Assembly (NCBI GenBank): GCA_944329205.1
Contig: CALVHY010000027.1
Span: 2,636 to 66,635, forward strand
Direction of reading: 5' to 3'
Source of the DNA: an uncultured Bacilli bacterium
GTDB taxonomy: Bacteria; Bacillota_I; Bacilli_A; RF39; UBA660
DNA length: 64,000 nt
Shown: in pieces, positions 8,411 through 48,563 of the stretch
Position numbering within the stretch: position 1 is the stretch's first letter
How the letters are laid out: each line of letters opens with the position of its first letter
Made by a program: the position numbers and the translations under genes
The notes under the pieces: model-generated
What the model saw: only the letters and a program-made list of their open reading frames with translations
The model's database searches: none
Told to the model about the DNA's origin: nothing

Positions 8411-9736
8411 TCAAACGACCGTAAACGGATCGCTGGCACTGCCACTGCCCGTTAACTGCACATCAGCCTTCAGATTTAATACTGGGCGCACCCCGAACGT
8501 GCTATCCACGCGGTTGTAGTTGTCCAGGTCGCCAAACGAATACACAATGAACACGCGAGCATTGCTGCCGTTAAAGTAAGACGGAGACATGGTCCAATAT
8601 ATGCTGTTTGTATATAGGTAGTAACTACTATTTCCTGTTCCATATACTCCTCCAGCATAGGCTACTTCATCGGCCGTGATTAATCCTACCGGATAGGTTA
8701 ACGCTTCATTCCCTACTCCTGCCCCGTCAACGGTATATAGATCGTTATCAGGATCAGGACAATCATATGTTGGTGTCTTATTTGTATTTAATCGATATCT
8801 TGCTCCATAATAAGTTACAGTTGTTCCTGTTCCTCCTGTATCATTTGGTGCTCCAGTAGAACTCGTTGTTGATGTTCGATCACCACAGAATCCTGTTGTT
8901 GTTGATATCTTACTGGTGTAGTCTGTATTATTTGCTATATTATTTTGGTACCATGTATCTACGGCACTTTTTATACCACTATTTGTTCCCAATCCATGCA
9001 CTTGATTTAATGTATACATATATCCTACATAAGCATTGTTATTATATGTACTACTATTTATGGAAAACGTACTTGTTCCTGTTTGAGTACTACTTCCTGT
9101 GGTACTTGTACCGGTTCCATTATAGATAATTCTTATTGTCCCATCACCATTAATTCGGATGATCCGCCAATAGAATCCGGCAAATTGTAACCAGTTTTCG
9201 GTATTTGCTCCCGCAAAGTAATAACTTGTCCCCTCGCCATCCGGTGCTTGGTATATCGTACCATTAGTGTTTGATGTTAATACCGATGAAAAGCTTGTCC
9301 TTTCTTGGATCGTTTTATCTGCTAGTATTGATTGACATGCTGCTCCACATGTAAGATCAAAATATAAATAACATTTTGTCCCCTTTTGAGATGTGCCTAG
9401 TATATTTGTTTTCCCATCTACATATTCAATAGTGATACCCTCATCTTTTACATCATCTATGGCACAATAACTCTCACTTGTGTTTAATACATAATCACTT
9501 GTTGGGACTGTATCTACTTCATCATATCCTCCCGCTTCATTTTGTTGGTATATAGCCACTATATTTAAATCATAAGGAATATATGTGATTGTCCCATTGA
9601 TTAAAGGAAAAGATTCGGTTACCCGATATTTTGCTCTTGTAAAATTTAGGATTAAGGTTGTAATTAACGCTATTACGATGACTCCTATAATGATGTTTCT
9701 TGTTAAATGATTCTTTTTTAAAGTCTCTATTTCCAT
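8411..9736 (-). CDS. surface protein, N-terminal signal-anchor, paralog A (441 aa)
   Basis: N-terminal TM (NIIIGVIVIALITTLILNF), then a Thr/Ser/Gly-rich extracellular domain. About 60% identical to the product of 26428..27738 through most of its length. The last roughly 200 nt are strongly GC-rich. Confidence 0.7.
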   Translation of the reverse strand: MEIETLKKNHLTRNIIIGVIVIALITTLILNFTRAKYRVTESFPLINGTITYIPYDLNIVAIYQQNEAGGYDEVDTVPTSDYVLNTSESYCAIDDVKDEGITIEYVDGKTNILGTSQKGTKCYLYFDLTCGAACQSILADKTIQERTSFSSVLTSNTNGTIYQAPDGEGTSYYFAGANTENWLQFAGFYWRIIRINGDGTIRIIYNGTGTSTTGSSTQTGTSTFSINSSTYNNNAYVGYMYTLNQVHGLGTNSGIKSAVDTWYQNNIANNTDYTSKISTTTGFCGDRTSTTSSTGAPNDTGGTGTTVTYYGARYRLNTNKTPTYDCPDPDNDLYTVDGAGVGNEALTYPVGLITADEVAYAGGVYGTGNSSYYLYTNSIYWTMSPSYFNGSNARVFIVYSFGDLDNYNRVDSTFGVRPVLNLKADVQLTGSGSASDPFTVV

Positions 9737-26342: not shown

Positions 26343-26427
26343 TTAAATATAAGCTAGGAAACTAACCATATCATAGCTTATCTTAAGCCAAAAGAAAATG
26401 AAGCAGAACTTCATGAAAGGATTAGTT

Positions 26428-27738
26428 ATGCCAATCGAAACATTAAAGAAAAGTCATTTAACAAGAAATGCAATCATAGCATTAATTGTAATAGCAATTA
26501 TTACAACCTTAATATTAAATTTCACAAGAGCTAAATACCGTAATACCCAAAGTATCCCTTTAATTAATGGAACTATTACATTTAATAATGCCGATTTAAA
26601 TGTTATTGCTATGTATCAACAAGATGATACAGGGGATTATGAAAGCATTGATACTGTTCCAACTAGTGGATACACTCTTAATTATGAAAATAGCTATTGC
26701 GAAGTTAACGGCGCGAAAGATTCTGATGTATCATTAAACTATAATGAAGGAAGAATGAATGTATCCTTTACCAAAAAAGGAACTAAATGCCATCTATATT
26801 TTGATGTTATGTGTGGAAAAGCCTGCAGAACTATATTAGCAAATAAAACAATCCAAGAAAGAACAAGCTTTTCATCAGCATTAACTACAAATACCAATGG
26901 CACCATCTATCAAGCCCAGGATGGTTCGGGAACTAGCTACTACTTTGCTGGAGCCAATACCGAAAACTGGTTATATTTTGCCGGATTTTACTGGCGTATT
27001 ATCCGGATCAATGGCGATGGTACAGTGAGAATCATTTATAATGGCACCAGCACTAGTACGACAGGAACAAGAACCCAGTTGTCTAGTACTAGTTACTTCA
27101 ACAGTTCGTCTCATAATAATATGTATGTAGGATATATGTATACAAGTGGAGAGGTGCATGGACTTGGAACAAGTAGTACCATCAAAGAAGAAGTAGATGA
27201 ATGGTACAAAAATAATATAGCAACTAATACAGAGTACACCAACAAGATCTCAACAACAACCGGTTTCTGTGGCGATAGAACATCAACTACAACTAATGGT
27301 GGTGCTCCAAATGATACAGGAGGAACAGGAACAACGACAACATATTATGGAGCGAGATATAGATTGTATACAAATAAAACGCCAACATATGATTGCCCAA
27401 ATCCTGATAACGATCTATATACCATGGCAGGATCAGGAATAGGAAACGAAGCCTTAACTTATCCCGTAGGACTAATCACCGCGGATGAAGTAGCATACGC
27501 TGGAGGAGTATGGCATACAAGTAATACCAGTTATTACTTATATACGAATAGTATATATTGGACAATGTCCCCGTTTAGCTATCCAAGTGCTGGCGTATTC
27601 TATGTAGATTCGGATGGCTTCCTTGGCAACACCATCGTGAATGACATATACTACGGCATTCGTCCTGTCATAAACCTAAGGTCTGATGTTACTTTAACAG
27701 GAACAGGTACATCTTCTGATGCATTTCGCGTTTCTTAA
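26428..27738 (+). CDS. surface protein, N-terminal signal-anchor, paralog B (436 aa)
   Basis: Start chosen at MPIETLKK (AAAGGA RBS) to match paralog A (MEIETLKK). N-terminal TM. Collinear similarity with 8411..9736 except the last roughly 60 aa. Confidence 0.7.
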   Translation: MPIETLKKSHLTRNAIIALIVIAIITTLILNFTRAKYRNTQSIPLINGTITFNNADLNVIAMYQQDDTGDYESIDTVPTSGYTLNYENSYCEVNGAKDSDVSLNYNEGRMNVSFTKKGTKCHLYFDVMCGKACRTILANKTIQERTSFSSALTTNTNGTIYQAQDGSGTSYYFAGANTENWLYFAGFYWRIIRINGDGTVRIIYNGTSTSTTGTRTQLSSTSYFNSSSHNNMYVGYMYTSGEVHGLGTSSTIKEEVDEWYKNNIATNTEYTNKISTTTGFCGDRTSTTTNGGAPNDTGGTGTTTTYYGARYRLYTNKTPTYDCPNPDNDLYTMAGSGIGNEALTYPVGLITADEVAYAGGVWHTSNTSYYLYTNSIYWTMSPFSYPSAGVFYVDSDGFLGNTIVNDIYYGIRPVINLRSDVTLTGTGTSSDAFRVS

Positions 27739-29090: not shown

Positions 29091-30998
29091 TTAACCAAAA
29101 CGGCCCCCACCGCCGCCGCCACCAAAGCCGCCGCCGGAAGAAAATCCGCCACCGAATCCGCCACCACTAGAATAACTTGAATGCGTATTCGCATAATTAG
29201 CCGCTTGTCTATTATAAGCTGTATTTATCGCACTATTTATACTATTATTTATTATTGGTGATATATTTATATAATAAAAGATCGGATAATAATCAATACC
29301 TAAAGTAGAAGTATCTATTTCGTTTATATGCACATTCATACTTTTCTCCACCTTATTAGCAAGGCCAAATACTGTGGCATAAACCAAATATCTTTCCCAC
29401 AAAATAATTTCCGGCAATTCTTTTAAGTCAAATGCTCCAAAATCATTTAAGAAATTTTTAAATGCTTTCCATTTAGCATAATGTAAACTACCCTTTTTTG
29501 TTTTCTTATAAACAACTAAAGTAAACAAGAAAAAGATTACTGCCAAAAATATTGCTATATAGGAAAATACATAATCAATACCATTGTTTATAATATACAT
29601 AAGTAAATAAATTGCTATTAATAAAACAATAACTCCCAACACTTTAGGAGTTGAACTAGTCTCAAAAAAATCTTCATTAACTCCATCTTCCAAAACACTA
29701 TTTTTCCAATTAGTATAACTTTTAATAAAAGTATTACAAGTTTTTGTTCCATCAGCATAATTTTTTAAATTTATTGTTGTAAATGTTTTTTTACCATCTT
29801 CCCCTGTCTTTTTCCCAACCGTATCAAACAAAAAATCAACCAACAACTTTTCACTATCATTTAAATTTTGCGTATTTTCTAAAGTAAATATATAATCTTT
29901 ATTCTTTTTCTTACCCTTTATTTCTTCAACCTTAATATTTTTCTTATAAATAAGATTCATAATTGAAGCTGATAAAGCATTAGGACTAATCTTTCTATTC
30001 ATCAAATAATCAATTACTTCAACATTATAATCATCAATAAATTCCCGATTATATTTCGAATAATAACCACTCTTTGGACTTTTAGCATATTTTAAATAAA
30101 CAAATACCCCTAATATTAAAACAACTCCTATTAAAATCCAAGATAACCATGTTGCCAAATTTCTTTGGCCAATTAGTTCATCTCGAAGCTGATTAGCTAC
30201 CTCAGCCCTATCCGTTTCTACTTCTATAATACTATTTAATGCTTCCCTGTGACTATACTTTGTAATCTCCTGACTATTAATTAAAGTCGGATCAAAAGTA
30301 AGCCGTACATCAACTGCTTCTCCTGGTAAAACTTCCTCAATATAAGCATAAACTCCATTATTATCTATTTTCTCAATTGTACCATCTAAATTACCATGAG
30401 CCCAAAAACGAAATAAATCACTATCATCATTCCCTGGCAAATGCACTTTTACTTGCACATTTTGTAAAGTATCTTCAAAGCCATCCGGTACAAAAGTCCA
30501 ATAAAGCTCTGCTACATCTTCATGTAATACCACCGCATCTTCTATTACATATTTAATATAAAAAGCTGTCTTTTTATTTTCCGTATAATAATACATTCGA
30601 TATCGATATCCATTAGTTAAACGACTAGTTGTATATTTGCCTCTTTCACCATCACTAGCATAACTAACTAACGAAAAAGGAAAAAAATCTTGATCAGCAA
30701 AAGTCTCAAAAGAAATCTCATCCACTTCTTTAGCATAAACTTCTACTTCACTTATATCTGTTGCATTATAAATAGCATTATTAGCTAAACTATCACCATC
30801 ACTTAAAGCCCCATTTTGATAAAGTATATCCCGTTCAAACCAATTAAACGTACCGTCAGCGCCAACTAACTCATGAACCTCAACATCGCCATTTTCTCGT
30901 ATATAAGCATCAACCAAAAAATCTGTGACTTCTACCCTAGCGGCATTAACCATAGTTGGAACGAAAAACATTAATAAACCCAAAAAAACTCTTTTCAT
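29091..30998 (-). CDS. DUF2207-family membrane protein with C-terminal Gly-rich tail
   Basis: Signal peptide, large extracellular domain, TM helices, C-terminal GGGFGGGFSSGGGFGGGGGGGRFG. Typically paired with LemA. Confidence 0.55.
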   Translation of the reverse strand: MKRVFLGLLMFFVPTMVNAARVEVTDFLVDAYIRENGDVEVHELVGADGTFNWFERDILYQNGALSDGDSLANNAIYNATDISEVEVYAKEVDEISFETFADQDFFPFSLVSYASDGERGKYTTSRLTNGYRYRMYYYTENKKTAFYIKYVIEDAVVLHEDVAELYWTFVPDGFEDTLQNVQVKVHLPGNDDSDLFRFWAHGNLDGTIEKIDNNGVYAYIEEVLPGEAVDVRLTFDPTLINSQEITKYSHREALNSIIEVETDRAEVANQLRDELIGQRNLATWLSWILIGVVLILGVFVYLKYAKSPKSGYYSKYNREFIDDYNVEVIDYLMNRKISPNALSASIMNLIYKKNIKVEEIKGKKKNKDYIFTLENTQNLNDSEKLLVDFLFDTVGKKTGEDGKKTFTTINLKNYADGTKTCNTFIKSYTNWKNSVLEDGVNEDFFETSSTPKVLGVIVLLIAIYLLMYIINNGIDYVFSYIAIFLAVIFFLFTLVVYKKTKKGSLHYAKWKAFKNFLNDFGAFDLKELPEIILWERYLVYATVFGLANKVEKSMNVHINEIDTSTLGIDYYPIFYYINISPIINNSINSAINTAYNRQAANYANTHSSYSSGGGFGGGFSSGGGFGGGGGGGRFG

Positions 30999-31038: not shown

Positions 31039-31590
31039 TTAAAATTGTACTTTAACATTTTCTTTTTCCGCACTTTCAGCTTCAAAGAATTTTTCTTGCT
31101 TAAACTTAAATAATCCAGCAATAATGTTAGATGGTACCATTTCAATCTTATTATTATATTGCATAACAATGTCATTATAAAATTGTCTTGACATGGCAAT
31201 CTTATCTTCGGTTTGTTGTAGTTCTTGTTGTAATTGTTGGAAGTTTTGATTAGCTTTTAAATCAGGATAATTTTCTGATAAGGCAAATAGCTTATTAATA
31301 GCATTAGTTAACTCTCCATCAGCTTTTAACTGATCTTCAGGTAACGTTGCTGATAAATAAGTATTACGAGCTTTAATCACTTCTTCTAAGGTTTCACTTT
31401 CATGTTTAGTATAGCCTTTAACTGTTTCAACTAAATTAGGGATTAAATCAAACCTTCTTTTTAATTGAACATCGATTTGACTCCAAGCATCTTTTACTCT
31501 ATTTCTAAAGTCTACTAAAGAGTTATAAGTTGCAACAGCCCAAATAAGAATAAGTACAACAATGACTATAACAATAATAGCAATCCACAT
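31039..31590 (-). CDS. lemA: LemA family protein
   Basis: N-terminal TM followed by the conserved LemA region (ATYNSLVDFRNRVKDAWSQIDVQLKRRFDLIPNLVETVKGY). Confidence 0.8.
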   Translation of the reverse strand: MWIAIIVIVIVVLILIWAVATYNSLVDFRNRVKDAWSQIDVQLKRRFDLIPNLVETVKGYTKHESETLEEVIKARNTYLSATLPEDQLKADGELTNAINKLFALSENYPDLKANQNFQQLQQELQQTEDKIAMSRQFYNDIVMQYNNKIEMVPSNIIAGLFKFKQEKFFEAESAEKENVKVQF

Positions 31591-37415: not shown

Positions 37416-37427
37416 TTATGTTAATTA

Positions 37428-37457
37428 AGCCCTTATTTTAAGGGTTTTTTTGTTTTA
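37428..37457 (+). terminator. tRNA-Asn terminator
   Basis: AGCCCTTA-ttt-TAAGGGT followed by T7. Confidence 0.6.
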
Positions 37458-37524: not shown

Positions 37525-37929
37525 TTATTCATAGTATCTTGAACAAGCATCACCAGCGGCAGGAGCATCTCCTTCATATTCAACATAGCATTCGCATTCA
37601 TCTCCACCAGGACTAGTAATACATGCGGCACACTTATCATATTCAGCTTCCAAATCCCCAGAGAAATCGCCAACTAATCCAAATATAGCACCAACTAAAG
37701 TAGGAACAAAGAATATAATAATACCAGCTATTGCTCTAATTGCTAAAGACTTAACAGACTTTTTAATTTCATCATCTTTACTAGCTACTACGGCCTTTCC
37801 TAAATCGATCATACCAAATATAATAATTATAATAGGAATTGCAATTTTAAAGACCCATAATATCCAACCAATAATTTGCCAAAGACCAGCTAACTCCGTG
37901 CAAAACTTTGGATCATCCATAATAAACAT
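37525..37929 (-). CDS. small two-TM secreted/membrane protein (candidate atypical pilin or VirB2/TrbC-like subunit)
   Basis: 134 aa. Two hydrophobic helices (LWQIIGWILWVFKIAIPIIIIIFGMI and LAIRAIAGIIIFFVPTLVGAIFGLV), then an acidic Cys-containing tail (CAACITSPGGDECECYVEYEGD). Last gene of the secretion-ATPase operon. No G/xxxxEY Flp motif and no GFxxxE class III signal. Confidence 0.4.
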   Translation of the reverse strand: MFIMDDPKFCTELAGLWQIIGWILWVFKIAIPIIIIIFGMIDLGKAVVASKDDEIKKSVKSLAIRAIAGIIIFFVPTLVGAIFGLVGDFSGDLEAEYDKCAACITSPGGDECECYVEYEGDAPAAGDACSRYYE

Positions 37930-38015: not shown

Positions 38016-38804
38016 CTATAAATTCATAAGTAGTAAAACAGCTAATATTAATAACACCATAACCCCAATACCTGTTGTTATTAGCATTCGCATTGTTTTA
38101 CTTTCCATTTTATCCAAACGATCTTTATACTTCGTTTCTCTTGCTTTTTGTTGTAAATTGGAAATTGTTCTTGAAAAAGCAAGTAATTGTTCTTGTTTCC
38201 GCTCTTGTCTACCTAAACTAAGCCGATAGAGCAATCTCATCATTCGCATTGAATCTCTTACTGGATATTTTCTTGCAAAATCCATATAAGGTTCAATTGT
38301 ATCATCACCTGCATTAATCGCATTAATTAATTCTTTTAATCCATCTTTAAATATATCAGGAGCATCTTCTAATGATTTACCAATTGCTACCGGTACAGTA
38401 TAATGTTGAATTAATATTTCCAAACCTTTTAAATAATAAGGAAGCATTGTATCTATTTCATGTAAATGTCTTTTATAATAATTTTTAAGATTGATATAAT
38501 CAAGTTTAAAAAAGACAAAACCAATTACAATACAAATTAAAGCATAAACATAAGACATACTTGAAATAAGTAAACAAAAGACCAATACCATAACAATTAA
38601 AGCATTTCTAATTCTTTTATTAAAAAGCAAATCCGGATTGACTGTATCTCCATATTTAGCTTTTACATAAAAATCATAATCACTTTCTTTTAATTTCCGC
38701 AAATACATTTCATTATCGGCAATTAATTTACCAATACTTATCTTTCCACTATAAGTTAATATAAAGAAAATAATCACCGCAATAACAGCTATTTCTATTT
38801 GCAT
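38016..38804 (-). CDS. TadC-like membrane protein (single T2SSF-type domain)
   Basis: 262 aa. N-terminal TM, two TM at about residues 65-100, cytoplasmic helical domain, C-terminal TM. Topology and size match TadB/TadC rather than two-domain GspF/ComGB. Confidence 0.5.
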   Translation of the reverse strand: MQIEIAVIAVIIFFILTYSGKISIGKLIADNEMYLRKLKESDYDFYVKAKYGDTVNPDLLFNKRIRNALIVMVLVFCLLISSMSYVYALICIVIGFVFFKLDYINLKNYYKRHLHEIDTMLPYYLKGLEILIQHYTVPVAIGKSLEDAPDIFKDGLKELINAINAGDDTIEPYMDFARKYPVRDSMRMMRLLYRLSLGRQERKQEQLLAFSRTISNLQQKARETKYKDRLDKMESKTMRMLITTGIGVMVLLILAVLLLMNL

Positions 38805-38805
38805 A

Positions 38806-39702
38806 TTACTCTACCCCCACATTCTCATTATAATATTTCTCTCCTGAGAGTAAAAAGTAACTATTAATAATAATTATACCATGCAAAATAATATGTACAT
38901 ACCATAAATTTAAAAGCCGTAAATAACTATCTTTACCTAGTAAAACCTGCATAACTAAAACTAGCAAAAATAATACTAAAGCAAAAGTAATGAACTTTGT
39001 ATGAAATTGTTTTCTATCCATTTGATCACGATATACTCCCTCAACCAAAGAATCAATATCCATACTCATATTTTCCAAAGACTCTCCTGAATCTTTAGCA
39101 CCCTCTTTAGTAATTTGTAAAAATAGTTGATGCATATTTTTTACCATATAATAAGGATATTTTTGGTTAAAGTACTCAATAGATTCATCAATCGTTCCAT
39201 TTTGATAAGACATGTTAATCATTGTCTTTACATCTTCTAAAACAGGATCCTCAAGTATTCCTGAATCTCTTACCCCCTCTAATGATTTAACAAAACTTTG
39301 CGTCGTATTAAATTCCATTATAACATTAGTTGTATATATTTGAATTTGTTCAAATATATATTCACTATACAATCTTTTACTACGTAAAAAAGCTAAATAA
39401 GGAATAAAAGCCACTGCAATAATCACATAAATAATAACCACAATCAAGCTATAAAAGTATAAATACGCTATAGCTGCCGCTAAGCCCCCAATAACAACTA
39501 TTTGCAAGGTATAATCTTTTACGGTATAATCTTGTTTTAATTCTTTCATTTTCGCACTTATTGTTTTATAACTATAAGGCGCATACTTTTCATATATAAC
39601 CCCAAATTGGGCCTTAGCAAACTTATAAAAGGTTTCCGTCCCATCATTTTTTCGGTATATAATAATAAACATCGCAATTAAAAATATAATTACAAATTCC
39701 AC
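38806..39702 (-). CDS. TadB-like membrane protein (single T2SSF-type domain)
   Basis: 298 aa with the same topology as its neighbour. Immediately downstream of the secretion ATPase gene. Confidence 0.5.
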   Translation of the reverse strand: MEFVIIFLIAMFIIIYRKNDGTETFYKFAKAQFGVIYEKYAPYSYKTISAKMKELKQDYTVKDYTLQIVVIGGLAAAIAYLYFYSLIVVIIYVIIAVAFIPYLAFLRSKRLYSEYIFEQIQIYTTNVIMEFNTTQSFVKSLEGVRDSGILEDPVLEDVKTMINMSYQNGTIDESIEYFNQKYPYYMVKNMHQLFLQITKEGAKDSGESLENMSMDIDSLVEGVYRDQMDRKQFHTKFITFALVLFLLVLVMQVLLGKDSYLRLLNLWYVHIILHGIIIINSYFLLSGEKYYNENVGVE

Positions 39703-39717
39703 TTGCCTAACCTCCTT

Positions 39718-40806
39718 TTATAAAGTCTCGATTGTATCTTCTGCTTTATTATTTAAATGGAACAAATCTTCATCCAAAATAACTCCTTGAATAGCTAAAT
39801 AACTTCTTAAATATTTCGTCGGATTATTCAAAGTAAATTTCCCATCTAATGTTTTTTGATAAATGGTATTTACTTGAGGTTTATTATTTTCATCTACATA
39901 AAATTCACAAATCTCCATAATTTCTCTTTGAAAACGTCCTAATTTTTCACTCATATATCCTTTTACATAAATACCTATTTGCACATAACGATGAATAGTT
40001 GTAATAAACTGTTCGACATCAATATTAGATTCAATCAAACTATACATTCGCATCGGTATTAAAGCTGCCCTATCCGAGTGAATAGTTGATATAATATGAT
40101 GTCCTGAAGAAATAGAATTACGTACTGCCATAACGGCCTCAGCACTTCTAACCTCACTTAATAATATCCAAATAGGATTTTGTCTCATACAAGTAACCAA
40201 AACTTCTGAATAAGAAGCAATGTTATTTGTTTTCATTGCTACAATATCCCGATGGGGAAAAATTCTATCTAAGTGTAACTCTAACGTATCTTCAATCGTA
40301 ATAATTTTTTCATTTTCTTTAGTTGCACTAGCTAAATACTTAACGAGCTCAGTTTTACCAGAACCAGTTTCTCCACTAACAATAATATTAGCATGTCCCT
40401 GAACGCAATTTAAGAGAAAATCGAGTAAATCCGCACTGACATATTCTTCTTTAATTAACTTATCACGATTAAGTCGAATCTTCGCTGGCGTTTTTCTAAT
40501 AACTAAAGCAATTCCATTTGTCGCAATTGAATCATGAATAAAATTAAGCCGTAACTCTGTTGATTCGGCATCTAAAAAAGGATGTGCCATATTGAATGTT
40601 TTTCCCATGACATTAGAACACTGAAAAGCTAATTTTTCGACTAAAGCATTATTTATTTCTGGCCTTTCAACCCGATAAACACCTTTAGATAAACTCTTTA
40701 ACCAAAGCTGCCCCCCATTAGTATATGATATATCCGTAATATCATCTATATCAATAAATTCTCTTAAAGGTCCAAAGTCAATTTGCGAAAATATAGCATC
40801 ATTCAT
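39718..40806 (-). CDS. secretion-system ATPase of the CpaF/TadA/VirB11 family
   Basis: Walker A GETGSGKT, Asp box IITIEDTLEL, Walker B IWILLSEVR, His box GHHIISTIHS. 362 aa. Confidence 0.8.
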   Translation of the reverse strand: MNDAIFSQIDFGPLREFIDIDDITDISYTNGGQLWLKSLSKGVYRVERPEINNALVEKLAFQCSNVMGKTFNMAHPFLDAESTELRLNFIHDSIATNGIALVIRKTPAKIRLNRDKLIKEEYVSADLLDFLLNCVQGHANIIVSGETGSGKTELVKYLASATKENEKIITIEDTLELHLDRIFPHRDIVAMKTNNIASYSEVLVTCMRQNPIWILLSEVRSAEAVMAVRNSISSGHHIISTIHSDRAALIPMRMYSLIESNIDVEQFITTIHRYVQIGIYVKGYMSEKLGRFQREIMEICEFYVDENNKPQVNTIYQKTLDGKFTLNNPTKYLRSYLAIQGVILDEDLFHLNNKAEDTIETL

Positions 40807-41674: not shown

Positions 41675-42481
41675 CTAAACGGCGCTCCAAAAACTAGCAC
41701 CGGTGCTAGAAGCACTTCTTATTCTATTATAACAAGCATTATCTTGATAATGCCACCACTCTGAAGCTAAATCAGTTAAGCCTGCATCATTCATCATATA
41801 ATTACTAAGCTTTTGCGCTCCTTCACTATTAAGCATTCCTGTTGAATAATTACTCGCCGTCTTACTAACTGCCGGACTATAATACTTAATCGCTTCGGTA
41901 CTTAACTCATGCATTGCTGATGGCATGCTATACTCACTACCAGTATTATCGCCATCACCAGCAGTGATATTATTATCTTCACCGGTATTATCACCATCAC
42001 CAGCAGTAGTATTATTATCTTCACCAGTACCAGTATTTCCATCATTATCTTCACCGGCACCATTATTACTATCACCAACTTCATCTGCAAAGATTTGAAT
42101 AATCGCATCTATTCTTGTAATCGTATCATAATCTCCCGCTGATATAAAGTTTGTGCCACTATTTGATCTAACCTCAACACTTACTTTTGGTGGAGCTTCA
42201 TATATATCATAGAAATTAACTTCATAAGTATCTGTTGTTCCCATTACTTCGGCTGTCATTCTAATGAAAACTTCCATAAATTTTTCTTTATTCATTTTTA
42301 TTTCGTTGTAATCTCGATAATAAGCATAATCTACCGCTTCTAACATTGATGCTTCCACAATTTCTCTTATCGCATAATTATCCTGGGTAGTGTTAGTTGT
42401 AATGCCTTGCACTGAGATCATCAAACCTATTATCGCAACACCCATTACAACTAACCAATAACCCCAATATGAACTTTGCAT
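41675..42481 (-). CDS. N-terminally anchored protein with acidic Gly/Asp/Asn tandem repeats (TadE/pseudopilin-like?)
   Basis: N-terminal hydrophobic segment (YWLVVMGVAIIGLMISV). Central repeats GEDNNTTAGDGDNTGEDNNITAGDGDNTG encoded by about 45-nt tandem DNA repeats (about 41940-42075). Confidence 0.3.
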   Translation of the reverse strand: MQSSYWGYWLVVMGVAIIGLMISVQGITTNTTQDNYAIREIVEASMLEAVDYAYYRDYNEIKMNKEKFMEVFIRMTAEVMGTTDTYEVNFYDIYEAPPKVSVEVRSNSGTNFISAGDYDTITRIDAIIQIFADEVGDSNNGAGEDNDGNTGTGEDNNTTAGDGDNTGEDNNITAGDGDNTGSEYSMPSAMHELSTEAIKYYSPAVSKTASNYSTGMLNSEGAQKLSNYMMNDAGLTDLASEWWHYQDNACYNRIRSASSTGASFWSAV

Positions 42482-42500: not shown

Positions 42501-45500
42501 CTACTTCCATGAAGGACCTATCATATTTTGTTCAGAAATACCACTAGTCCATAATTCGAAGTATTCGGTATTATTATTACTTTCGGTCCGGTAATTACGA
42601 TTCATAATTAAACTACGATTATTAACAATTTCCGAATTATTTATAAATACTTGATTATTATAAGTAATTGTTCCATCAATTAAATCACTAATAAAGTTAC
42701 TGTAACAAGCTATTTCATCATAATCCCCGATCGTATAACAAGAAAGTGTTGCATTTGAATATCCGCCGCGATTATTTTTTTCCGCCTCATCATTATACTC
42801 TCTTATAGCTCTTGCGGTACTTGGTGTAATCGTAACACTTAAAATTGGATCTTCGGCATAAATACTATCACCAGCATTTTGAATTTGTTCAATAGTTGTC
42901 TGAGCCTTAGCATTTACATCTCGATTCCAGTTATATGATTTTGTACCATTAGGGAACAAGTTAGTAAGGGAAACAACTCTTTCAATCAACGATGAGCCAG
43001 CCTGATTATCATAAATACAACCTGCACCAATACAATCTGCTACACAATCAGATCCATCACAATCATAATTACAATTTGGCCCCACACAATTAGCCGTACA
43101 ATCATCACCATTACAACTATCCCAATCACACACGATTGTATAATTCTCTTCTATACCCATATTAACTAAATACGCACACATATACTGAACGGTACCATTT
43201 TCATCTACAAATTCGGCATAGTCTTCCTCATTAATAACCGCCGTATCGCCACCAATTAATCGACCTAAACTACCATTTCGATCATAATATTCCCCAAGAT
43301 TCGTAATATTTACTGTATATTCATAAATACCTCTTCTTGTACTCAAACTAACTGGCAATTTATTTTCCAAAGCCGTTGCATTTTCGTTATTTTCCCCTTC
43401 ATCACGATCAACTATTTCACCACTTGGATAAACATTATAAAACAATGTCGATGGCACATAATTAACATTAATCGTTGAAGTTACTTTTTTATATGAAGCA
43501 TTTGATATTTCTTCTCGTTTAAATGAACAACCACTCTCATCACAATAAACATAATCTATTAAAGCTGTACTTTCATCAGTTGAACCACTACAACTATCAT
43601 AACCATTATTTATTGTTCCGTAAGTATAATTTCCATTAGCCAGTGATCCATTACAATACCACTCGGTTGTATTATCACTCGTAATGGTATCATCCATTTC
43701 CCCATGATTATTATAATGATCCGCCAAATAATCCTCGGCATAATCATAATAAATAGTTGGATCATAGTTAATATCCGTTGTCCAATTAGAACATCCATTA
43801 TAATCACTAATTATTTGATTGTAATTATCTATCGCCGTTTGTAAAGCACTTCTTGCCGTACTTAAATCTCCGCCATAGCGATTATTATAATCTTGAGTAT
43901 AAGATACACTACTACATGAACCACTATAACCAGAACAATTACAACTGCTACATGAGCCACTACCAAACGATAAAGTTTCATTATGCGTGGAGGCAACTCC
44001 ACTATAACTATAAGTTACATAACTAAATGTTTTTTGCGCTGTACTCCATGAACAACTTCTTCTTCCACTTGAACGGCATACTCTAGTACAACTACTACCA
44101 CTACTAGTAGCATTATTATTCTCATCATCTTCTGTACAAATTTCCTCTGAATAACAACCTGTACTATATGAACATGATCTTGAACTTACGTTGGTAAAAC
44201 TTGCACTATCTAGCGCCCTTAATCTTGCATAAGTATTATAAGCATCAACTAAAGCTCTTTGTGCTTGTTCAATATCAGCTTCATATAATTCCCGATCAAT
44301 CGTATTTGTATAACATGTCTTTGTCCCACTAACCGCTGCACTAAACGTAAAGTATCTACCGGCATTAACAAGTTTAGCTGTTGGCATGTTCATAATATAA
44401 TCTTCTTTACAAGATACTACACAATATTTATTTTTCTGTAGAGTATAAGAATTTTCCTCATCATCACTTACTCCGGCAGCATTTTCATATCCTGTCGTTG
44501 CATCCCTATAACCATCAATTTGATTTACAAAGCAAATTTTTGCTTCCTCAGGACCAGTTATTGATACTGGATGGTTATCAACTGTTGAAATAATCAAATT
44601 ATTTTCCGCATCACAACACTCAAATGCCGTTACGGAAGTTGTACAACCAACACTACAATTTTCATAATAAGCTTGGCATGCCTCATCATCACCTAAAACA
44701 TTACATTCAATTTCTAATTCGGCACACTCACCGCAATTAGCATCCAATAACTCTTGACAAGCATCCCCTTCTAAATTGCCCGTTTCTTCAGCTTCAATCG
44801 TACAAGCTTCAATCAAATCATCACAATCACATACATCAATTAAACTAACCGAACCTGTTAATTCGCCCGTTACGTCTTGACTAACCGCCTCTGATACTTC
44901 ATCAACACTTAAAAACCGTTGATATTGTGTTCCCCAAGCATCAGCATATATATTATCCCAAACAATACCTACATAATTGCTGTATTTACCATTCGCTGAA
45001 GTATCACTATAAGTATAACTCATCGTATAAGACATTGGTTGTTGCCCACAATTAAGCTTATTATAAGTGTTTTGATATCCAGCGTTTACATTTTCATATC
45101 CTGTAAATTCTATTACAATTTCCACGGTTATCTCATCTGGAATACTATCTAAAACTCTTAAAATATTATCCCCATAATTAAAATCATAAGCATCTGTATA
45201 AGATATACCATTAACGGTAATTTCCACAATTCTTGGCTGTTCATTTACACCTAAAACATCCAAACTTTGATCATATGTAAGATCATTTATAACAAAAGAA
45301 GCATTTCCATCGTTTGTAAAATTACGTAAAGTCAAAGTTCTTTTTATTTGTAAATTTACACTATCACCAATTGCTGTTGACTCATTATTAATTGCAACTT
45401 GTTCCGTTAAAACATTATCATCAATACTAGCTCCCCCATCATTATCCATATACTCTGCCGCATCTGCTAAAGCTTGTGCATATAGTTGTTTAGCTTTATT

Positions 45501-46238
45501 AAGTATTGCTTCTGCTCGCTCATCATTTGTATTTGTAGAACTATACCAAACTGGTTGGAATGAATACAATGAATAATCTTCTAAAACTGATAAATCCAAA
45601 GTATATTGACTTAAAGCATCATAACTAGCTCTAATTCCTGAATCACCTGTAATCCAATTATAAGCTTGACCAAAATAAGTTTCATATAGTAAAGACCAAC
45701 CGTTTTTATCATAACCCCAAGTTGCTACAATTGATCTAACTGCAATACTTGTTGCTAAATAATCATCAGACGTATGATCATTTCTCTCACCGTTAACTAA
45801 TGCACTTAAAATAGCCATATCAAAAGCCTTAACGCCTGGTTCTGGATCGCTTAGTAAAAATCTTTTGGCAAATACTGTATCAAATCCTCCTGTAGCATCG
45901 GAATCTAAACAATACATCGCAAGACCATAACGATCGTAATGAGAATAAAGAGATGCATAGCTTGTCCAAGAATAATTATTGCCGTCATTTACATCTCCAC
46001 TTCCTGAATATTGTCTAATTAATAAATTATAATTAGAAAGATTAGAACGACTAAATCCCTTTGAAACAGTTGTACTTACCCCTGCCACATAATTATGTAA
46101 CTCTGCATTACCTGTCGCTGTTATCGTCCCATAAGTAGCACCATATCTTGTCTCGGCTGCTTCAACTTTTAAACTAAAACCTAAAGTGATAACTAAAGCA
46201 ATGATAATATAACTGACTTTTTTTAACATATTTTTCAT
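42501..46238 (-). CDS. giant secreted Cys-rich protein (1245 aa), candidate adhesin/tip protein
   Basis: Cleavable signal peptide (IIIALVITLGFSLKVEA). Three dense Cys clusters (about residues 470-550, 690-790, 1050-1100). YCLD motif near residue 110. No C-terminal anchor. Confidence 0.6.
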   Translation of the reverse strand: MKNMLKKVSYIIIALVITLGFSLKVEAAETRYGATYGTITATGNAELHNYVAGVSTTVSKGFSRSNLSNYNLLIRQYSGSGDVNDGNNYSWTSYASLYSHYDRYGLAMYCLDSDATGGFDTVFAKRFLLSDPEPGVKAFDMAILSALVNGERNDHTSDDYLATSIAVRSIVATWGYDKNGWSLLYETYFGQAYNWITGDSGIRASYDALSQYTLDLSVLEDYSLYSFQPVWYSSTNTNDERAEAILNKAKQLYAQALADAAEYMDNDGGASIDDNVLTEQVAINNESTAIGDSVNLQIKRTLTLRNFTNDGNASFVINDLTYDQSLDVLGVNEQPRIVEITVNGISYTDAYDFNYGDNILRVLDSIPDEITVEIVIEFTGYENVNAGYQNTYNKLNCGQQPMSYTMSYTYSDTSANGKYSNYVGIVWDNIYADAWGTQYQRFLSVDEVSEAVSQDVTGELTGSVSLIDVCDCDDLIEACTIEAEETGNLEGDACQELLDANCGECAELEIECNVLGDDEACQAYYENCSVGCTTSVTAFECCDAENNLIISTVDNHPVSITGPEEAKICFVNQIDGYRDATTGYENAAGVSDDEENSYTLQKNKYCVVSCKEDYIMNMPTAKLVNAGRYFTFSAAVSGTKTCYTNTIDRELYEADIEQAQRALVDAYNTYARLRALDSASFTNVSSRSCSYSTGCYSEEICTEDDENNNATSSGSSCTRVCRSSGRRSCSWSTAQKTFSYVTYSYSGVASTHNETLSFGSGSCSSCNCSGYSGSCSSVSYTQDYNNRYGGDLSTARSALQTAIDNYNQIISDYNGCSNWTTDINYDPTIYYDYAEDYLADHYNNHGEMDDTITSDNTTEWYCNGSLANGNYTYGTINNGYDSCSGSTDESTALIDYVYCDESGCSFKREEISNASYKKVTSTINVNYVPSTLFYNVYPSGEIVDRDEGENNENATALENKLPVSLSTRRGIYEYTVNITNLGEYYDRNGSLGRLIGGDTAVINEEDYAEFVDENGTVQYMCAYLVNMGIEENYTIVCDWDSCNGDDCTANCVGPNCNYDCDGSDCVADCIGAGCIYDNQAGSSLIERVVSLTNLFPNGTKSYNWNRDVNAKAQTTIEQIQNAGDSIYAEDPILSVTITPSTARAIREYNDEAEKNNRGGYSNATLSCYTIGDYDEIACYSNFISDLIDGTITYNNQVFINNSEIVNNRSLIMNRNYRTESNNNTEYFELWTSGISEQNMIGPSWK

Positions 46239-46993
46239 TCTACCTTACTCCTTCGCTTTCTTATTATCACATAAACAGTCAATCCCCCAATTACGACAAT
46301 TGCTACACCTACACCTATAACTATTGCTAGATTATCTTGAATAAAATCAAAGAAGCCTTCTTCTTCCGAATCTATTGGTTCTTCCACTTCTTCGCCACTA
46401 TCATCAATTTGACCTGCATTATATCGCTCGATCAATTCGACAAACCTACCGAAATCAACACTTGGCACTGATAAAAAAGTATTACATAAATAAAAGTCTT
46501 CATTACCATCACATAATCTATATTGGCTATATTCATTATACATTGGTGTTGTCAAATATAGTGTATACAATTCGGTATTAGCACAATTAGTATTACTAGA
46601 ACTATAAACGGTAATAGTAAAATTAGTAATCGCCAAAATATTAGTCCAATCCAAACTAATCGTTCCATTATCACTATCCTGGTAAGTATAAGTTTGAACT
46701 TGATCATCAACATCATTTTCTACTGTAATGTATAAATCTTCTGTTAAATTACTAATATAAATACGAAAGAAACTATAATATGCCACATACTCCTCTAACT
46801 CCTCTTCCGTTAAGCCATCGGGAGCTGAATACTCACCTTCCAGCTCTTCCCTCATCACTTCATAGCTCGCTCTAACATTAGCTGCCAAACTATTAAGGGT
46901 ATTTGTTTCGCTTGCATCACATACTGCATAAACTACATTACTGTTTACCAAAAAAAGTAACAGGGCCAAAATTAACGCATTAATTTTTTTCAT
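46235..46993 (-). CDS. secreted protein with C-terminal TM anchor and basic tail
   Basis: Start placed at MKKINALILALLLFLVNSNVVYA (signal peptide). C-terminus LAIVIGVGVAIVVIGGLTVYVII-RKRRSKVE. ATGA overlap with the giant protein gene. Confidence 0.5.
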   Translation of the reverse strand: MKKINALILALLLFLVNSNVVYAVCDASETNTLNSLAANVRASYEVMREELEGEYSAPDGLTEEELEEYVAYYSFFRIYISNLTEDLYITVENDVDDQVQTYTYQDSDNGTISLDWTNILAITNFTITVYSSSNTNCANTELYTLYLTTPMYNEYSQYRLCDGNEDFYLCNTFLSVPSVDFGRFVELIERYNAGQIDDSGEEVEEPIDSEEEGFFDFIQDNLAIVIGVGVAIVVIGGLTVYVIIRKRRSKVE

Positions 46994-47018
46994 AGTATAC
47001 ACCAACCTCATATTCAAA

Positions 47019-47047
47019 ATTATAACATGTAACTTCCTTTTTTTCAA
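47019..47047 (-). promoter_or_regulatory. sigma-A consensus promoter TTGAAA-17-TATAAT driving the 47-37.5 kb operon
   Basis: Minus strand TTGAAA (47047-47042), 17-nt spacer, TATAAT (47024-47019). About 25-nt leader with GAGGTTGGTG RBS before ATG 46993. Confidence 0.55.
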
Positions 47048-47081
47048 CATAAATAAAAGAAAAAAGAAGCCAAAAAGCCCC

Positions 47082-48563
47082 TTAAATAATTGCCATTAAA
47101 ATGAATATAATTAACAAGCAAATAAACATTCCTAGTAAGAATCGCCATATATATTTTAGCCACTCACCATATTTAATTTTTAACAAAACAAGACCAATTC
47201 CTAAAATCATACTAGTTGGAATAAAGAATTGTACAAATCCATATAAAGATGTAAACATTACATAAACAGGATTGATATAATCAACATATTCTACAGGTAA
47301 ATAAGCTCCCATTACCCATCCAGTAAAACCTAAATCGGTATGGAAAATATTTAAAATTAAACTCGATAAAGTCATCGTTGCTATATTAAAAGTATCGGTT
47401 AAAGTAAGGATTCTATTTACAATTGTTGCAACATATGTTGATTGGTAAACAACAATCATAAGTAAATAAGCTCCAGCAATACAAGCGATCGGTAAAATCA
47501 TTTTTTTAATTCCACTTATTATACTTTCAAACAAATCTTTTAACTTAAAGCGATAACATAATGCTAAAATACCAATGAATATTACTAATACAGCCGTAAT
47601 AGTTACATTATCCCACGATCCAAAAGCTTTCATGCCTGATCCAAGTAGATCTTGGAAAACATAAAAATCATTAGTTGTATCGCTAGCTTCTATTTTAATA
47701 TCTTCTGTTAAAAACTCATGGAAATCATTAAAAGTATTAACTCCAAAATTTCCATCCCAATCCATAAAACCTAAAATACTTATTGCTAAAATCAAAATGC
47801 CAATTATGATTATAGGAATCATACTTTTCGTTTTCTTAACATTATCTTCACTAACTGTTACCGCAAACAAATCAACACTAGGCGCTTTTTCATCAACCTT
47901 ATTCATGTGAGTAATTGTAAAAAAGTTAAAAAGGATTAGACCAATAACAAGTATTCCCGCTCTAACTAAAAGTGCTGGTGCATTAAAAGGAAATTCCAAA
48001 GTATATCCCAAATAATAATTAAACCAATATAAGCCATCCGTTCCATAAGTAGCTCCCATAATACCTACCAACATTGATCCAAATGTTGTTGCTAAAATTG
48101 TCATTTTATCTAATTTCATTCGATTTAATATCGAAATAATAAATGGAATAAAAATTAAAACAACAAACGTTTGTGTAAGTAAGCTCGTTAAAGCCGCAAT
48201 AACAACTGAAAAGGCGACAACTGCGATCTTCTTATGCTTAATCTTCCCCGCAATTCCTGATACAATCCTTTCATATCCCTGGGTTCTACTTAATAAGCCG
48301 TATAAAGCCCCGATTGCTAATAACAAAATAATTTTGTCAACCCCAAAAGAAACTGCATAATAAATATTATAAGCAATATCATAAATTCCTAATCTTGCCA
48401 TTCCTGTTTGGGTATAACCACTAGAACCATAGCCACCCGCTGGAATAATCCAAGTAAGAATAAAGGCAATTATAATAAATATTAAGGCCCCTTTTAAAAG
48501 ACTATAATGCTTTTCTTTTTTCTCCATAAATTCCCTCCTAACATTGATTATAATACAAATCAT
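47082..48563 (-). CDS. YfcC/DcuC-like polytopic membrane transporter
   Basis: 493 aa, 10+ TM. Resembles the YfcC family often annotated as C4-dicarboxylate anaerobic carrier-like. Confidence 0.5.
   Translation of the reverse strand: MICIIINVRREFMEKKEKHYSLLKGALIFIIIAFILTWIIPAGGYGSSGYTQTGMARLGIYDIAYNIYYAVSFGVDKIILLLAIGALYGLLSRTQGYERIVSGIAGKIKHKKIAVVAFSVVIAALTSLLTQTFVVLIFIPFIISILNRMKLDKMTILATTFGSMLVGIMGATYGTDGLYWFNYYLGYTLEFPFNAPALLVRAGILVIGLILFNFFTITHMNKVDEKAPSVDLFAVTVSEDNVKKTKSMIPIIIIGILILAISILGFMDWDGNFGVNTFNDFHEFLTEDIKIEASDTTNDFYVFQDLLGSGMKAFGSWDNVTITAVLVIFIGILALCYRFKLKDLFESIISGIKKMILPIACIAGAYLLMIVVYQSTYVATIVNRILTLTDTFNIATMTLSSLILNIFHTDLGFTGWVMGAYLPVEYVDYINPVYVMFTSLYGFVQFFIPTSMILGIGLVLLKIKYGEWLKYIWRFLLGMFICLLIIFILMAII

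Follow-up and report, generated by a model that had tools for sequence, protein, structure and literature searches.

A probable divergent thioester-type domain in a large Cys-rich secreted protein encoded beside a Tad/VirB11-type ATPase: a candidate covalent adhesin of uncultured Bacilli

Within a 64,000-nucleotide stretch of the genome of an uncultured Bacilli bacterium (contig CALVHY010000027.1, positions 2,636 to 66,635; hereafter the window), a gene on the reverse strand encodes a Cys-rich secreted protein of 1245 amino acids (aa). The best explanation for this protein, to which we assign a probability of roughly 0.6, is that it is a Sec-exported covalent thioester adhesin and serves as the adhesive component of a surface apparatus formed by a Tad/VirB11-type ATPase machine. 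Three near-invariant residues, profile-level similarity to known thioester domains (TEDs) and a gene order shared with the start of the conjugation operon of plasmid pLS20 are among the evidence for this assignment. To our knowledge, no bacterial adhesins other than thioester adhesins are known to form covalent bonds with their targets, and these have so far been linked to sortase-anchored TIE proteins.

Neither TED adhesins nor Tad-like machines are new as such. What is new here is a large unnamed family with a TED that escapes standard detection and carries an Arg instead of the helper Trp, a Cys-rich body that has no match to a known fold and ends in an invariant GPSWK, and a consistent genetic link of a TED protein to an ATPase machine instead of a sortase signal. 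The protein is probably the adhesive part of a surface apparatus as yet undescribed in uncultured gut bacteria. The hosts are uncultured gut 'Tenericutes/Bacilli' genomes whose surface biology is almost unexplored, and an abundant covalent adhesin would help to explain how these organisms associate with a host or with partner cells.

Near-invariant residues of the N-terminal domain

The family alignment comprises 137 full-length members, the distant ones about 28% identical to the window protein, and in the first 460 aa only three residues are near-invariant: C110 (136/137), R168 (136/137) and Q440 (132/137). When 40 N-terminal fragments were aligned on their own, the invariant columns were these three and no others. 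The consensus of the larger alignment reads [YF]-C-[LRIM]-[DN]-[PA] around C110, [YF]-D-x-[GA]-Φ-Φ-x-[IAV]-[LY]-x-x-G along a helix motif, Y-x-A-T-x-Φ-A-Φ-R along helix α2 and Q-R-[FY] at Q440. An initial annotation of the window, made from the letters alone, had picked out the string AMYCLDSD, and the string is indeed present; YCLD occupies residues 109–112 and is the sole match to [YF]C[LIV][DE] in the protein, in keeping with the [YFL]-C-Φ-π motif in which TEDs carry their thioester Cys on a β-strand.

The same annotation had found no Q-x3-W partner for the Cys. This holds insofar as the helper motif is truly absent, but not as a statement about the bond partner, since the corresponding TQxxΦW is a helper motif on helix α2 that lacks the bond-forming Gln (PMC6194298); the bond partner of C110 is likely Q440 in YQRF. 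The segment that aligns to TQxxΦW reads A-T-S-I-A-V-R, in which Thr is present in 70/137 members, Gln is absent and the position of the Trp is taken by the invariant Arg. This placement of R168 comes from hhalign and from the alignment of the Tie-type profile described below to SaTIE-TED 6FX6 ('ATQMLIW'), and Tie-type TEDs likewise deviate from TQxxΦW, carrying T-x-V-A-L-N. CGQQ (residues 397–400) was considered as a complement-like CGEQ thioester and rejected, as column 399 holds Gln in 14/137 members and a gap in 91/137, and the second Gln is lost in one relative (P0006).

Similarity to known thioester domains

A Pfam scan of the 40 N-terminal fragments returned TED as the top family, with PF08341 matched in 6/40 (best E 1.2e-6) and TED_2 in 2/40, and the TQXA model TIGR03934 matched 1/40 (E 0.0014). 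One relative (P0080) scores 26.3 bits on the Pfam TED model, for which the gathering cut-off is 22, with its residues 85–151 on profile positions 2–66. The Tie protein of pLS20, an experimentally supported TED adhesin without LPXTG (PMC8092201), reaches only 23.6 bits on the same model (residues 54–115 on positions 1–50), and the Cys of P0080 and that of Tie both fall on position 4 of the profile. The window protein itself lies below the gathering cut-off of PF08341 and PF20610, with no match to either at E ≤ 0.1, and sequence searches of the PDB with the N-terminal domain profile and with P0080 returned no TED.

A Tie-type profile was assembled from ten TEDs of Bacillus, Listeria and Carnobacterium plasmids, and this profile matches the solved class II TED 6FX6 (SaTIE-TED) with E 3e-4. 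Aligned to it by hhalign, the N-terminal domain of the family scored a probability of 72% (E 3.4e-5) and the Cys-bearing N-lobe alone a probability of 87.7% (E 3.4e-6, compared to E 0.79 for a reversed control); the ten-member profile is needed for this result, as the single-sequence alignment to Tie is weak (probability 10.8%). The alignment places C110 on the Tie Cys (Cys68 in the numbering of PMC8092201) and pairs AFDMAILSALVNG with YDDGVKAILYYG and YLATSIAVR with MVKTYVALN, so that the register is kept at the Cys and along both the YD..IL..G and the T..A helix. At the level of sequence profiles, the Cys-bearing lobe is homologous to genuine TEDs. With permissive settings the alignment runs colinear to the end of the domain and sets YQRF (Q440) opposite the YQRL of Tie, where Gln256 is the predicted bond partner, and the C-terminal 110 residues of the domain alone give the same Q440–Gln256 pairing, though weakly (E 0.019 versus 0.34 reversed).

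The AlphaFold2 model of the N-terminal domain, based on the 40-sequence alignment, has a predicted local distance difference test (pLDDT) of 91.6 and a predicted template modelling score (pTM) of 0.84. Along the chain it consists of β-strands, one of which (model strand E80–83) ends in C110, a helical bundle that contains the two helix motifs and closes at model residue 238, seven β-strands (244–260, 264–278, 287–295, 309–315, 342–357, 375–385 and 395–402) and, after this insert, two strands around Q440 (415–420 and 427–437), with Q440 just before the first of them. The Gln of class II TEDs is located on a P/Q hairpin, and the stretch between α3 and this hairpin contains an inserted β-sandwich (PMC6194298). 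The model matches the class II order of elements at the level of secondary structure only, and its β-sandwich insert is about twice the 75 residues given for class II (PMC6194298). Taken together, the identification of the N-terminal domain as a highly diverged class II-type TED is largely supported.

Export, cysteine pairing and composition

The protein starts with a typical Sec signal peptide that covers the first 27 residues (N-terminus MKNMLKKVSYIIIALVITLGFSLKVEA followed by AE, with A27 kept in at least 90% of the family) and is the sole hydrophobic segment, and a sequence scan found neither LPXTG nor a C-terminal transmembrane (TM) segment. The initial description of a secreted protein without an anchor is thus confirmed, as is that of three dense Cys clusters, located at aa 470–542, 689–775 and 1037–1074, with every string quoted for them found. 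The protein contains 45 Cys (3.6%) compared to 0.79 ± 0.65% in the 36 other window open reading frames (ORFs) of at least 150 aa, which is ~4.4 standard deviations above. Clusters 1 and 3 are positionally conserved in the family, the Cys of cluster 3 being present in 123–137 of the 137 members at most positions, while cluster 2 is conserved in neither sequence nor length and has a pLDDT below 50 in places. Cluster 1 corresponds to residues H6–61 of a model of the C-terminal ~780 aa, which also shows long β-strands and two helices of ~30 residues, and cluster 3 was modelled there at low confidence (pLDDT 34–47).

With the signal peptide excluded, the number of Cys is odd in 125 of the 137 family members (binomial p = 7e-25), which implies that Cys have been gained and lost two at a time with one left over. 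This fits ~22 disulfides and one unpaired Cys per protein, and C110 is the natural candidate for the latter. Segment 28–466 usually holds an even number of Cys, such that C397 would need a partner just past the boundary. Reciprocal best partners by presence and absence are 472–528, 479–494, 502–505, 512–521, 542–1042, 717–768, 721–763, 862–883, 899–904 and 1051–1065, and C1042 co-varies with C542 with a phi of 0.90, though all such co-occurrence correlations are confounded by phylogeny. We infer that the Cys other than C110 form disulfides rather than metal sites, the latter being possible for cluster 3. The proposal of disulfide- or metal-stabilised modules in the initial annotation is thus favored by parity in its first half, with its second half a possibility for one cluster. 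The parity signal is itself a simple, sequence-only route by which 'all paired but one' can be deduced.

The adhesin gene had also been described as GC-enriched, which is marginally the case (0.337 compared to 0.304 ± 0.031 in neighboring ORFs). The entire excess is held by codon positions 1–2 (0.418 versus 0.348 ± 0.042), while the GC content of third codon positions (GC3) is below that of the neighbors (0.173 versus 0.217 ± 0.032). The slight excess results from an amino-acid composition rich in Gly, Ala, Asp and Cys and not from foreign DNA, and it fails as a sign of foreign origin. Horizontal transfer of the gene was rejected on the basis of the low GC3 and the lack of plasmid or phage matches, a tblastn search with the C-terminal 709 aa having found none among 72,556 plasmids and 50,697 phages.

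The family shares an extreme C-terminal motif, G-P-[SA]-W-[KR], which is always located at the very C-terminus. In the window protein, this GPSWK-COOH (42504–42518) resembles the GPYSWK at the mature N-terminus of pLS20 Tie (L024 6567–6584), and two Tie homologues keep that motif as GPYTWK and GPYSWT; the likeness could be a shared docking motif at opposite ends of the two proteins, or chance. A further short resemblance exists between FPNGTKSYNW in the window protein (aa 1095–1104, 43125–43154) and FPNGTPDGW at the C-terminus of pLS20 Tie (L024 ~8700–8760). The family consensus at this site is NPNxRxxGYNW, in which N1103 does not vary and W1104 is kept in at least 90% of the members, and an HMM (hidden Markov model) search revealed no similarity to Tie wider than the short FPNGT motif.

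Size and distribution of the family

An exhaustive HMM search with residues 95–1245 identified 625 cluster representatives at E ≤ 1e-3, of which 300 reach E ≤ 1e-30, where clusters are defined at 50% identity, and the family therefore comprises at least 625 clusters. The representatives are nearly all 1000–1400 aa in length, and none of the ten family clusters that were looked up carries a name. A PHROGs search of the window protein and a PDB sequence search with the family profile were both empty, and the family as a whole is large, without names or annotation, and has a thioester head that standard domain searches miss. The C-terminal ~750 aa are the best-conserved part, and the N-terminal part often falls outside of the HMM match. 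This combination of a variable N-terminal domain and a conserved C-terminal region would be expected for a specificity head on a machine-docking body.

A word-indexed homologue search, by comparison, recovered only five close relatives, the same six proteins being returned whether the query was one sequence or a profile of 6 or of 137 sequences. This apparent rarity was rejected as an artefact of the tool in light of the 625 representatives from the exhaustive search. Low-complexity queries rich in Cys, Ser and Asn seem to saturate the candidate list of the word-indexed search, and apparent rarity in such searches is not to be trusted.

A search of one genome per species yielded 19 loci, of which 17 are titled as uncultured 'Tenericutes', 'Mycoplasmatota', 'Bacilli' or 'Mycoplasma sp. 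CAG:776', the titles indicating that the gut samples came from chicken, rabbit and human (Hadza) sources. The other two are titled as uncultured Muribaculaceae metagenome-assembled genomes (MAGs). The MAG labels 'Tenericutes', 'Mycoplasmatota' and 'Bacilli' usually denote what we take to be the RF39-type lineage.

The operon

Eight co-oriented genes, packed tightly together, form an operon that is conserved in 20–23 related loci, and the adhesin gene stands second among them (Table 1). The stop codon of gene 1, which encodes a membrane-anchored partner, overlaps the start codon of the adhesin gene (ATGA). The partner has hydrophobic segments at residues 16–35 and 233–265 and matches no Pfam, NCBIfam or PHROG family, and a homologue is present in 23 related loci. 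Its true start is probably the Met at 46993 (MKKINALIL...), which would give a protein of ~252 aa, because the promoter-like site falls inside the start of the called ORF (47050); orthologues of 253 aa lie directly upstream of the adhesin in three loci (L001–L003). The flanks of the operon consist of lysS-like and addB/addA-like genes, named from their translations, and the addB/addA flank, but not the lysS side, recurs in a related MAG, where Pfam domains of helicase and nuclease type underlie the naming.

In addition to its Pfam match above the cut-off, the gene 5 product matches VirB11 with E 1.4e-30 (106 versus 250 bits) and the TadA family with E 4.8e-28 (98 versus 373 bits), and lies below the curated cut-offs of every NCBIfam equivalog. 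The CpaB/RcpC-like product of gene 4 has an E-value of 2.4e-5 for RcpC (24.6 bits against a cut-off of 28.8) and of 3.9e-5 for TIGR03177 (23 versus 71 bits). The T4SS_pilin model that is weakly matched by gene 8 scores E 5e-4 and 9e-4 for the gene 8 paralogues in a distant locus (L034) and E 1.3e-7 for gene 45 of pLS20.

In this genome the DUF5411 protein has 268 aa, double the 136–142 aa that are usual, and the region 41675–42082 includes a repetitive linker rich in Gly, Asp, Asn and Thr (~41936–42082). Its C-terminal tail has a weak match, below the cut-off, to peptidase M15 (VanX-like; E 2.2e-5) that includes EWWHY, and may represent a cell-wall hydrolase module that has degenerated. One distant Bacilli MAG (L022, 522–9352) has the pair of anchor and adhesin genes twice in tandem, for proteins of 217 + 1063 aa and of 277 + 1095 aa, and a second DUF5411 gene separates the two pairs, an arrangement that suggests interchangeable adhesin cassettes. 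Cys-rich acidic tails are also found on other exported proteins, CAACITSPGGDECECYVEYEGD... in the 134-aa protein (37525–37929) and in the pilin-like proteins of 87 and 94 aa of L034 (9934–10500 and 12517–13275), and the whole apparatus, to judge from these tails, seems to rely on extracellular Cys chemistry.

Table 1. Positions of the adhesin gene, its parts and the surrounding operon in the window
Feature	Position	Strand	Basis
1245-aa Cys-rich secreted protein (gene 2)	42501..46238	-	Proposed covalent adhesin
N-terminal domain, aa 28–466, divergent class II-like TED	44841..46157	-	AlphaFold2 model, hhalign, Pfam on relatives
C110 codon (YCLD), proposed thioester Cys	45909..45911	-	Cys in 136/137 relatives; aligned with Tie Cys
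R168 codon, motif Y-x-A-T-x-Φ-A-Φ-R on helix α2	45735..45737	-	Arg in 136/137 relatives
Q440 codon (YQRF), proposed thioester Gln	44919..44921	-	Gln in 132/137 relatives
Cys cluster 1, aa 470–542	44613..44831	-	Predicted four-short-helix bundle stapled by Cys pairs (pLDDT 62–85)
Cys cluster 2, aa 689–775	43914..44174	-	Variable Ser/Cys-rich low-complexity insert between two long helices
Cys cluster 3, aa 1037–1074	43017..43130	-	Regular C-x3/4-C spacing, kept across family
Extreme C-terminal motif G-P-S-W-K-COOH	42504..42518	-	G 136, P 135, S/A 137, W 128, K/R 133 of 137
Gene 1, partner: signal peptide, ~180-aa Cys-containing ectodomain, acidic linker, C-terminal TM helix and RKRRSK	46235..47050	-	
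Gene 3, DUF5411 protein, pilin-like N-terminal TM segment	41675..42481	-	Pfam DUF5411 E 2e-48
Gene 4, CpaB/RcpC-like, N-terminal TM segment	40845..41660	-	RcpC and TIGR03177, both below cut-offs
Gene 5, TadA/CpaF/VirB11-type secretion ATPase	39718..40806	-	Pfam T2SSE E 2e-26, above Pfam cut-off
Gene 6, polytopic membrane protein (298 aa), TadB/C-like topology	38806..39702	-	TM, two central TMs, soluble domain, C-terminal TMs
Gene 7, second polytopic membrane protein (262 aa)	38016..38804	-	Topology as gene 6
Gene 8, 134-aa membrane protein, 2–3 TM segments, Cys-rich acidic C-terminal tail	37525..37929	-	Pfam T4SS_pilin E 0.062 (VirB2-like, weak)
Promoter-like site TTGAAA-17-TATAAT, TG-extended, 11/12 matches	47019..47047	-	Consensus match only; precedes operon
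Terminator-like hairpin closing upstream gene	47064–47083		Consensus match
Terminator-like hairpin between operon and addB	37427..37447	.	Consensus match only

Relation to the pLS20 conjugation operon

The conjugation operon of pLS20 starts with Tie (gene 34), followed by two small genes, a DUF5411-like gene (36), a gene for a 'VirB11/TadA' ATPase (37), genes for membrane proteins (38 and 39), small TM proteins and a T4SS pilin-like gene (45), and among these genes 36 and 38–41 are listed as unknown (PMC8557374). The gene 36 product matches DUF5411 with E 1.4e-5, and the window ATPase shares 32% identity with the gene 37 product (E 9e-40). Among the membrane proteins, the family of the 262-aa protein aligns to gene 39 with a probability of 47.6% (hhalign E 1.9e-4, 129 columns; BLASTP E 0.003) and that of the 298-aa protein to gene 38 with E 0.024 over 141 columns, the swapped pairings being weaker. 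Five genes of the window, for the TED protein, DUF5411, the ATPase and the two membrane proteins, thus share order and detectable homology with pLS20 genes 34, 36, 37, 38 and 39.

A tblastn search of the 64-kb window with the pLS20 ORFs of at least 80 aa (positions 1–50000 of 65774 bp) found a counterpart only for the ATPase, and no VirD4, VirB4 or relaxase. On the basis of this search with positions 1–50000, an integrated pLS20-like conjugative element was rejected, and the window operon is taken to be a chromosomal relative of the pLS20 module and no conjugative element. The family is linked to the unexplained pLS20 genes 36–40, and suggests a testable answer to how Tie, which lacks LPXTG, is displayed.

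A possible mechanism of covalent attachment

As a covalent adhesin, the 1245-aa protein would leave the cell by Sec, and C110, at the end of its strand, would form an internal Cys-Gln thioester with Q440, on the return strand after the β-sandwich. A nucleophile on the target surface would then attack the thioester, resulting in covalent attachment, and the invariant R168 would stand beside the bond in place of the Trp of TQxxΦW. Residues 467–1245 would act as stalk and machine-docking part, rigidified by ~22 disulfide pairs, with the invariant C-terminal GPSWK a possible aid to docking. Candidate docking partners are the upstream membrane-anchored partner protein or, alternatively, DUF5411 and pilin-like proteins. 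The formation of the thioester and the display by the ATPase machine are, like the target, inferred parts of this mechanism.

A wider version of the mechanism is tentative and, in our estimation, doubtful as a whole. An undescribed adhesion nanomachine may exist in which the ATPase, the two platform proteins, DUF5411 and pilin-like subunits build a short filament or display stand in monoderms. Its tip or cargo would be a Sec-exported, disulfide-knotted protein that docks via GPSWK and carries a covalent thioester head whose helper motif, based on Arg, would be new. For genome-reduced gut Bacilli, themselves uncultured, it would be a means of covalent attachment to host mucus or partner cells, and the same module (genes 34–40) would display Tie in pLS20.

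Alternative explanations

Several results weigh against a thioester adhesin displayed by an ATPase machine. The domain search recommended in the initial annotation came back empty for the 1245-aa protein itself, with no Pfam or NCBIfam model matching at E ≤ 0.1. A Foldseek search of the PDB with the N-terminal domain model had no TED among the matches listed (best E 1.7e-3, TM-score <0.2), and a search of BFVD gave no credible match. The helper motif TQxxΦW is absent from the domain, with ATxxAΦR in its place, the alignment on the Gln side is statistically weak, and the domain has a second Cys, C397, kept in 108/137 members, with parity alone unable to name the unpaired one. Disulfides in the exoprotein of an anaerobe are an assumption, and the C-terminal model is of moderate confidence (pLDDT 64) and without a credible Foldseek match in the PDB. 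On the side of the machine, Pfam T2SSF matches neither gene 6 nor gene 7 at E ≤ 0.1, and the window operon has genes for neither a major pilin nor a prepilin peptidase, with no pilin-like small ORF in the window. Distant loci (L034 and L022) do contain Flp-size pilin-like genes (MKEATxEL..., 87 and 94 aa) and TadE-like genes, and no prepilin peptidase was seen. It should be noted that the initial link from YCLD to TEDs, which had been offered as speculation, has the invariance of C110 and Q440, the Pfam TED matches of relatives, the hhalign results and the synteny with pLS20 Tie on its side, and a Foldseek search without a solved TED and a lost helper motif against it. Prediction of structure by segments, also suggested at the outset, had a similarly divided outcome, a confident N-terminal model in class II order and no credible PDB match for either segment.

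The missing helper motif and the Foldseek result would also suit a TED-derived domain that no longer forms a thioester, in which C110 is free or disulfide-bonded to C397, binding is non-covalent and the unpaired Cys lies elsewhere; the Cys count is also even for the N-terminal domain in 112/137 members and odd for the C-terminal part in 110/137. We regard this as unlikely. C110 is kept in 136/137 members but C397 in 108/137 and without a clear co-varying partner, a disulfide would not explain why Q440 and R168 are as invariant as C110, and the parity counts depend on an arbitrary boundary at residue 466, beyond which C397 could pair with C470 or C472. An invariant Cys together with an invariant Arg also resembles some Cys-based catalytic sites (that of sortase is His-Cys-Arg), and C110, R168 and Q440 could instead be the active site of an extracellular Cys-nucleophile enzyme, such as a transglutaminase, an amidase or a transpeptidase-like enzyme, that modifies the envelope or a target. 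Such an enzyme is improbable, as no His or other general base is conserved in the N-terminal domain, no enzyme family was matched in Pfam, NCBIfam or the PDB and the only significant profile similarity is to TEDs; a Cys protease or transglutaminase in particular was considered unlikely for want of a conserved His or base.

Two further alternatives concern what the protein is used for rather than its chemistry. The homology of the module to the start of the pLS20 conjugation operon and the T4SS_pilin-like gene at the end of the operon are what would be seen if the operon belonged to a conjugative element, or were left over from one, with the protein acting as a mating-pair adhesin in DNA transfer like pLS20 Tie and not as a factor for colonization of a host or partner. 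Little credence is given to this, as the window holds only the ATPase of the pLS20 ORFs searched (1–50000) and no VirD4, VirB4 or relaxase, the operon is flanked by housekeeping genes, with the addB/addA-like side shared with a related MAG, and GC3 is native, with the C-terminal 709 aa unmatched in plasmids and phages. A secreted toxin or pore-former exported by a type II secretion system-like machine is very improbable. The C-terminal model has long β-hairpins and long helices, and its top Foldseek match is the perforin-2 pore (E 2.9e-4); however, the match has a probability of 0.14, a TM-score of 0.05 and a root-mean-square deviation of 47 Å and was rejected as not real, the model confidence is low in this region and no MACPF or other toxin family was matched. 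A covalent thioester adhesin remains the preferred explanation.

Comparison with known systems

The window protein resembles the Tie protein of pLS20 (TIEpLS20) and class II TEDs (BaTIE 6FWV and SaTIE-TED 6FX6) in that its signal peptide leads straight into a domain with a [YF]C[LI]D Cys on a β-strand, which continues with a YD..IL..G helix, a T..A helix and a β-sandwich insert ahead of the strand with the conserved Q-R-[LF]. Like Tie it lacks LPXTG, and its gene stands just upstream of genes for DUF5411, a VirB11/TadA-type ATPase and two membrane proteins. Unlike class II TEDs, the domain measures ~440 aa rather than ~250, substitutes ATxxAΦR with an invariant Arg for TQxxΦW and is recognized as a TED by neither Pfam nor Foldseek. 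TIE proteins differ by their stalk of isopeptide or ester (CnaB-like) domains and their LPXTG sortase anchor. The window protein contains neither CnaB nor MucBP repeats, nor any other domain matched in Pfam, and instead continues into a Cys-rich region of ~780 aa without a known-fold match that ends in GPSWK. The gene also differs from that of pLS20 Tie in being chromosomal and unlinked to conjugation genes.

With Tad (type IVc) pili the operon shares a TadA/CpaF-family ATPase, a candidate CpaB/RcpC-like protein, two platform-like polytopic proteins and small proteins with pilin-like N-terminal hydrophobic segments (DUF5411), and the idea of a variable adhesive head on a conserved machine is found in Tad pili with large tip complexes (the Myxococcus Kil system, PMC12075869). 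Conversely, it has no Pfam T2SSF match and, within the window, no prepilin peptidase or major pilin, the host is a monoderm, and the adhesin, unlike a minor pilin, is a large protein with a Sec signal peptide and not a prepilin leader. The predicted T4P/T2SS-like DUF5411 operons of Gram-positive gut Clostridia, for which a role in secretion was predicted, encode CpaF, a PilC/GspF-like protein, DUF5411 and a large 'cell invasion'/adhesion protein (Miller et al. 2022, PMC9523054). There the large protein is remotely internalin-B-like, compared to a TED head and Cys-rich body here, and the lineages differ. In Streptococcus pyogenes, the TED protein Cpa likewise sits at the tip of a surface filament, a sortase pilus, where it serves covalent adhesion (PMC8092201), but it is polymerized and anchored by sortase via LPXTG and isopeptide bonds, whereas the window protein has no sortase signal and its machine is driven by an ATPase.

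Other genes of the window

The gene at 26398–27738 (+), on the strand opposite most window genes, encodes a protein of 446 aa that starts with a TM segment and has stretches rich in Thr, Ser and Gly, and it has the second highest GC among the long ORFs of the window (0.367, after 0.382 for 8411–9736). A 635-aa membrane protein (29091–30998) has a poly-Gly/Phe tail (GGGFGGGFSSGGGFGGGGGGGRFG) and adjoins a small membrane protein at 31039–31590.

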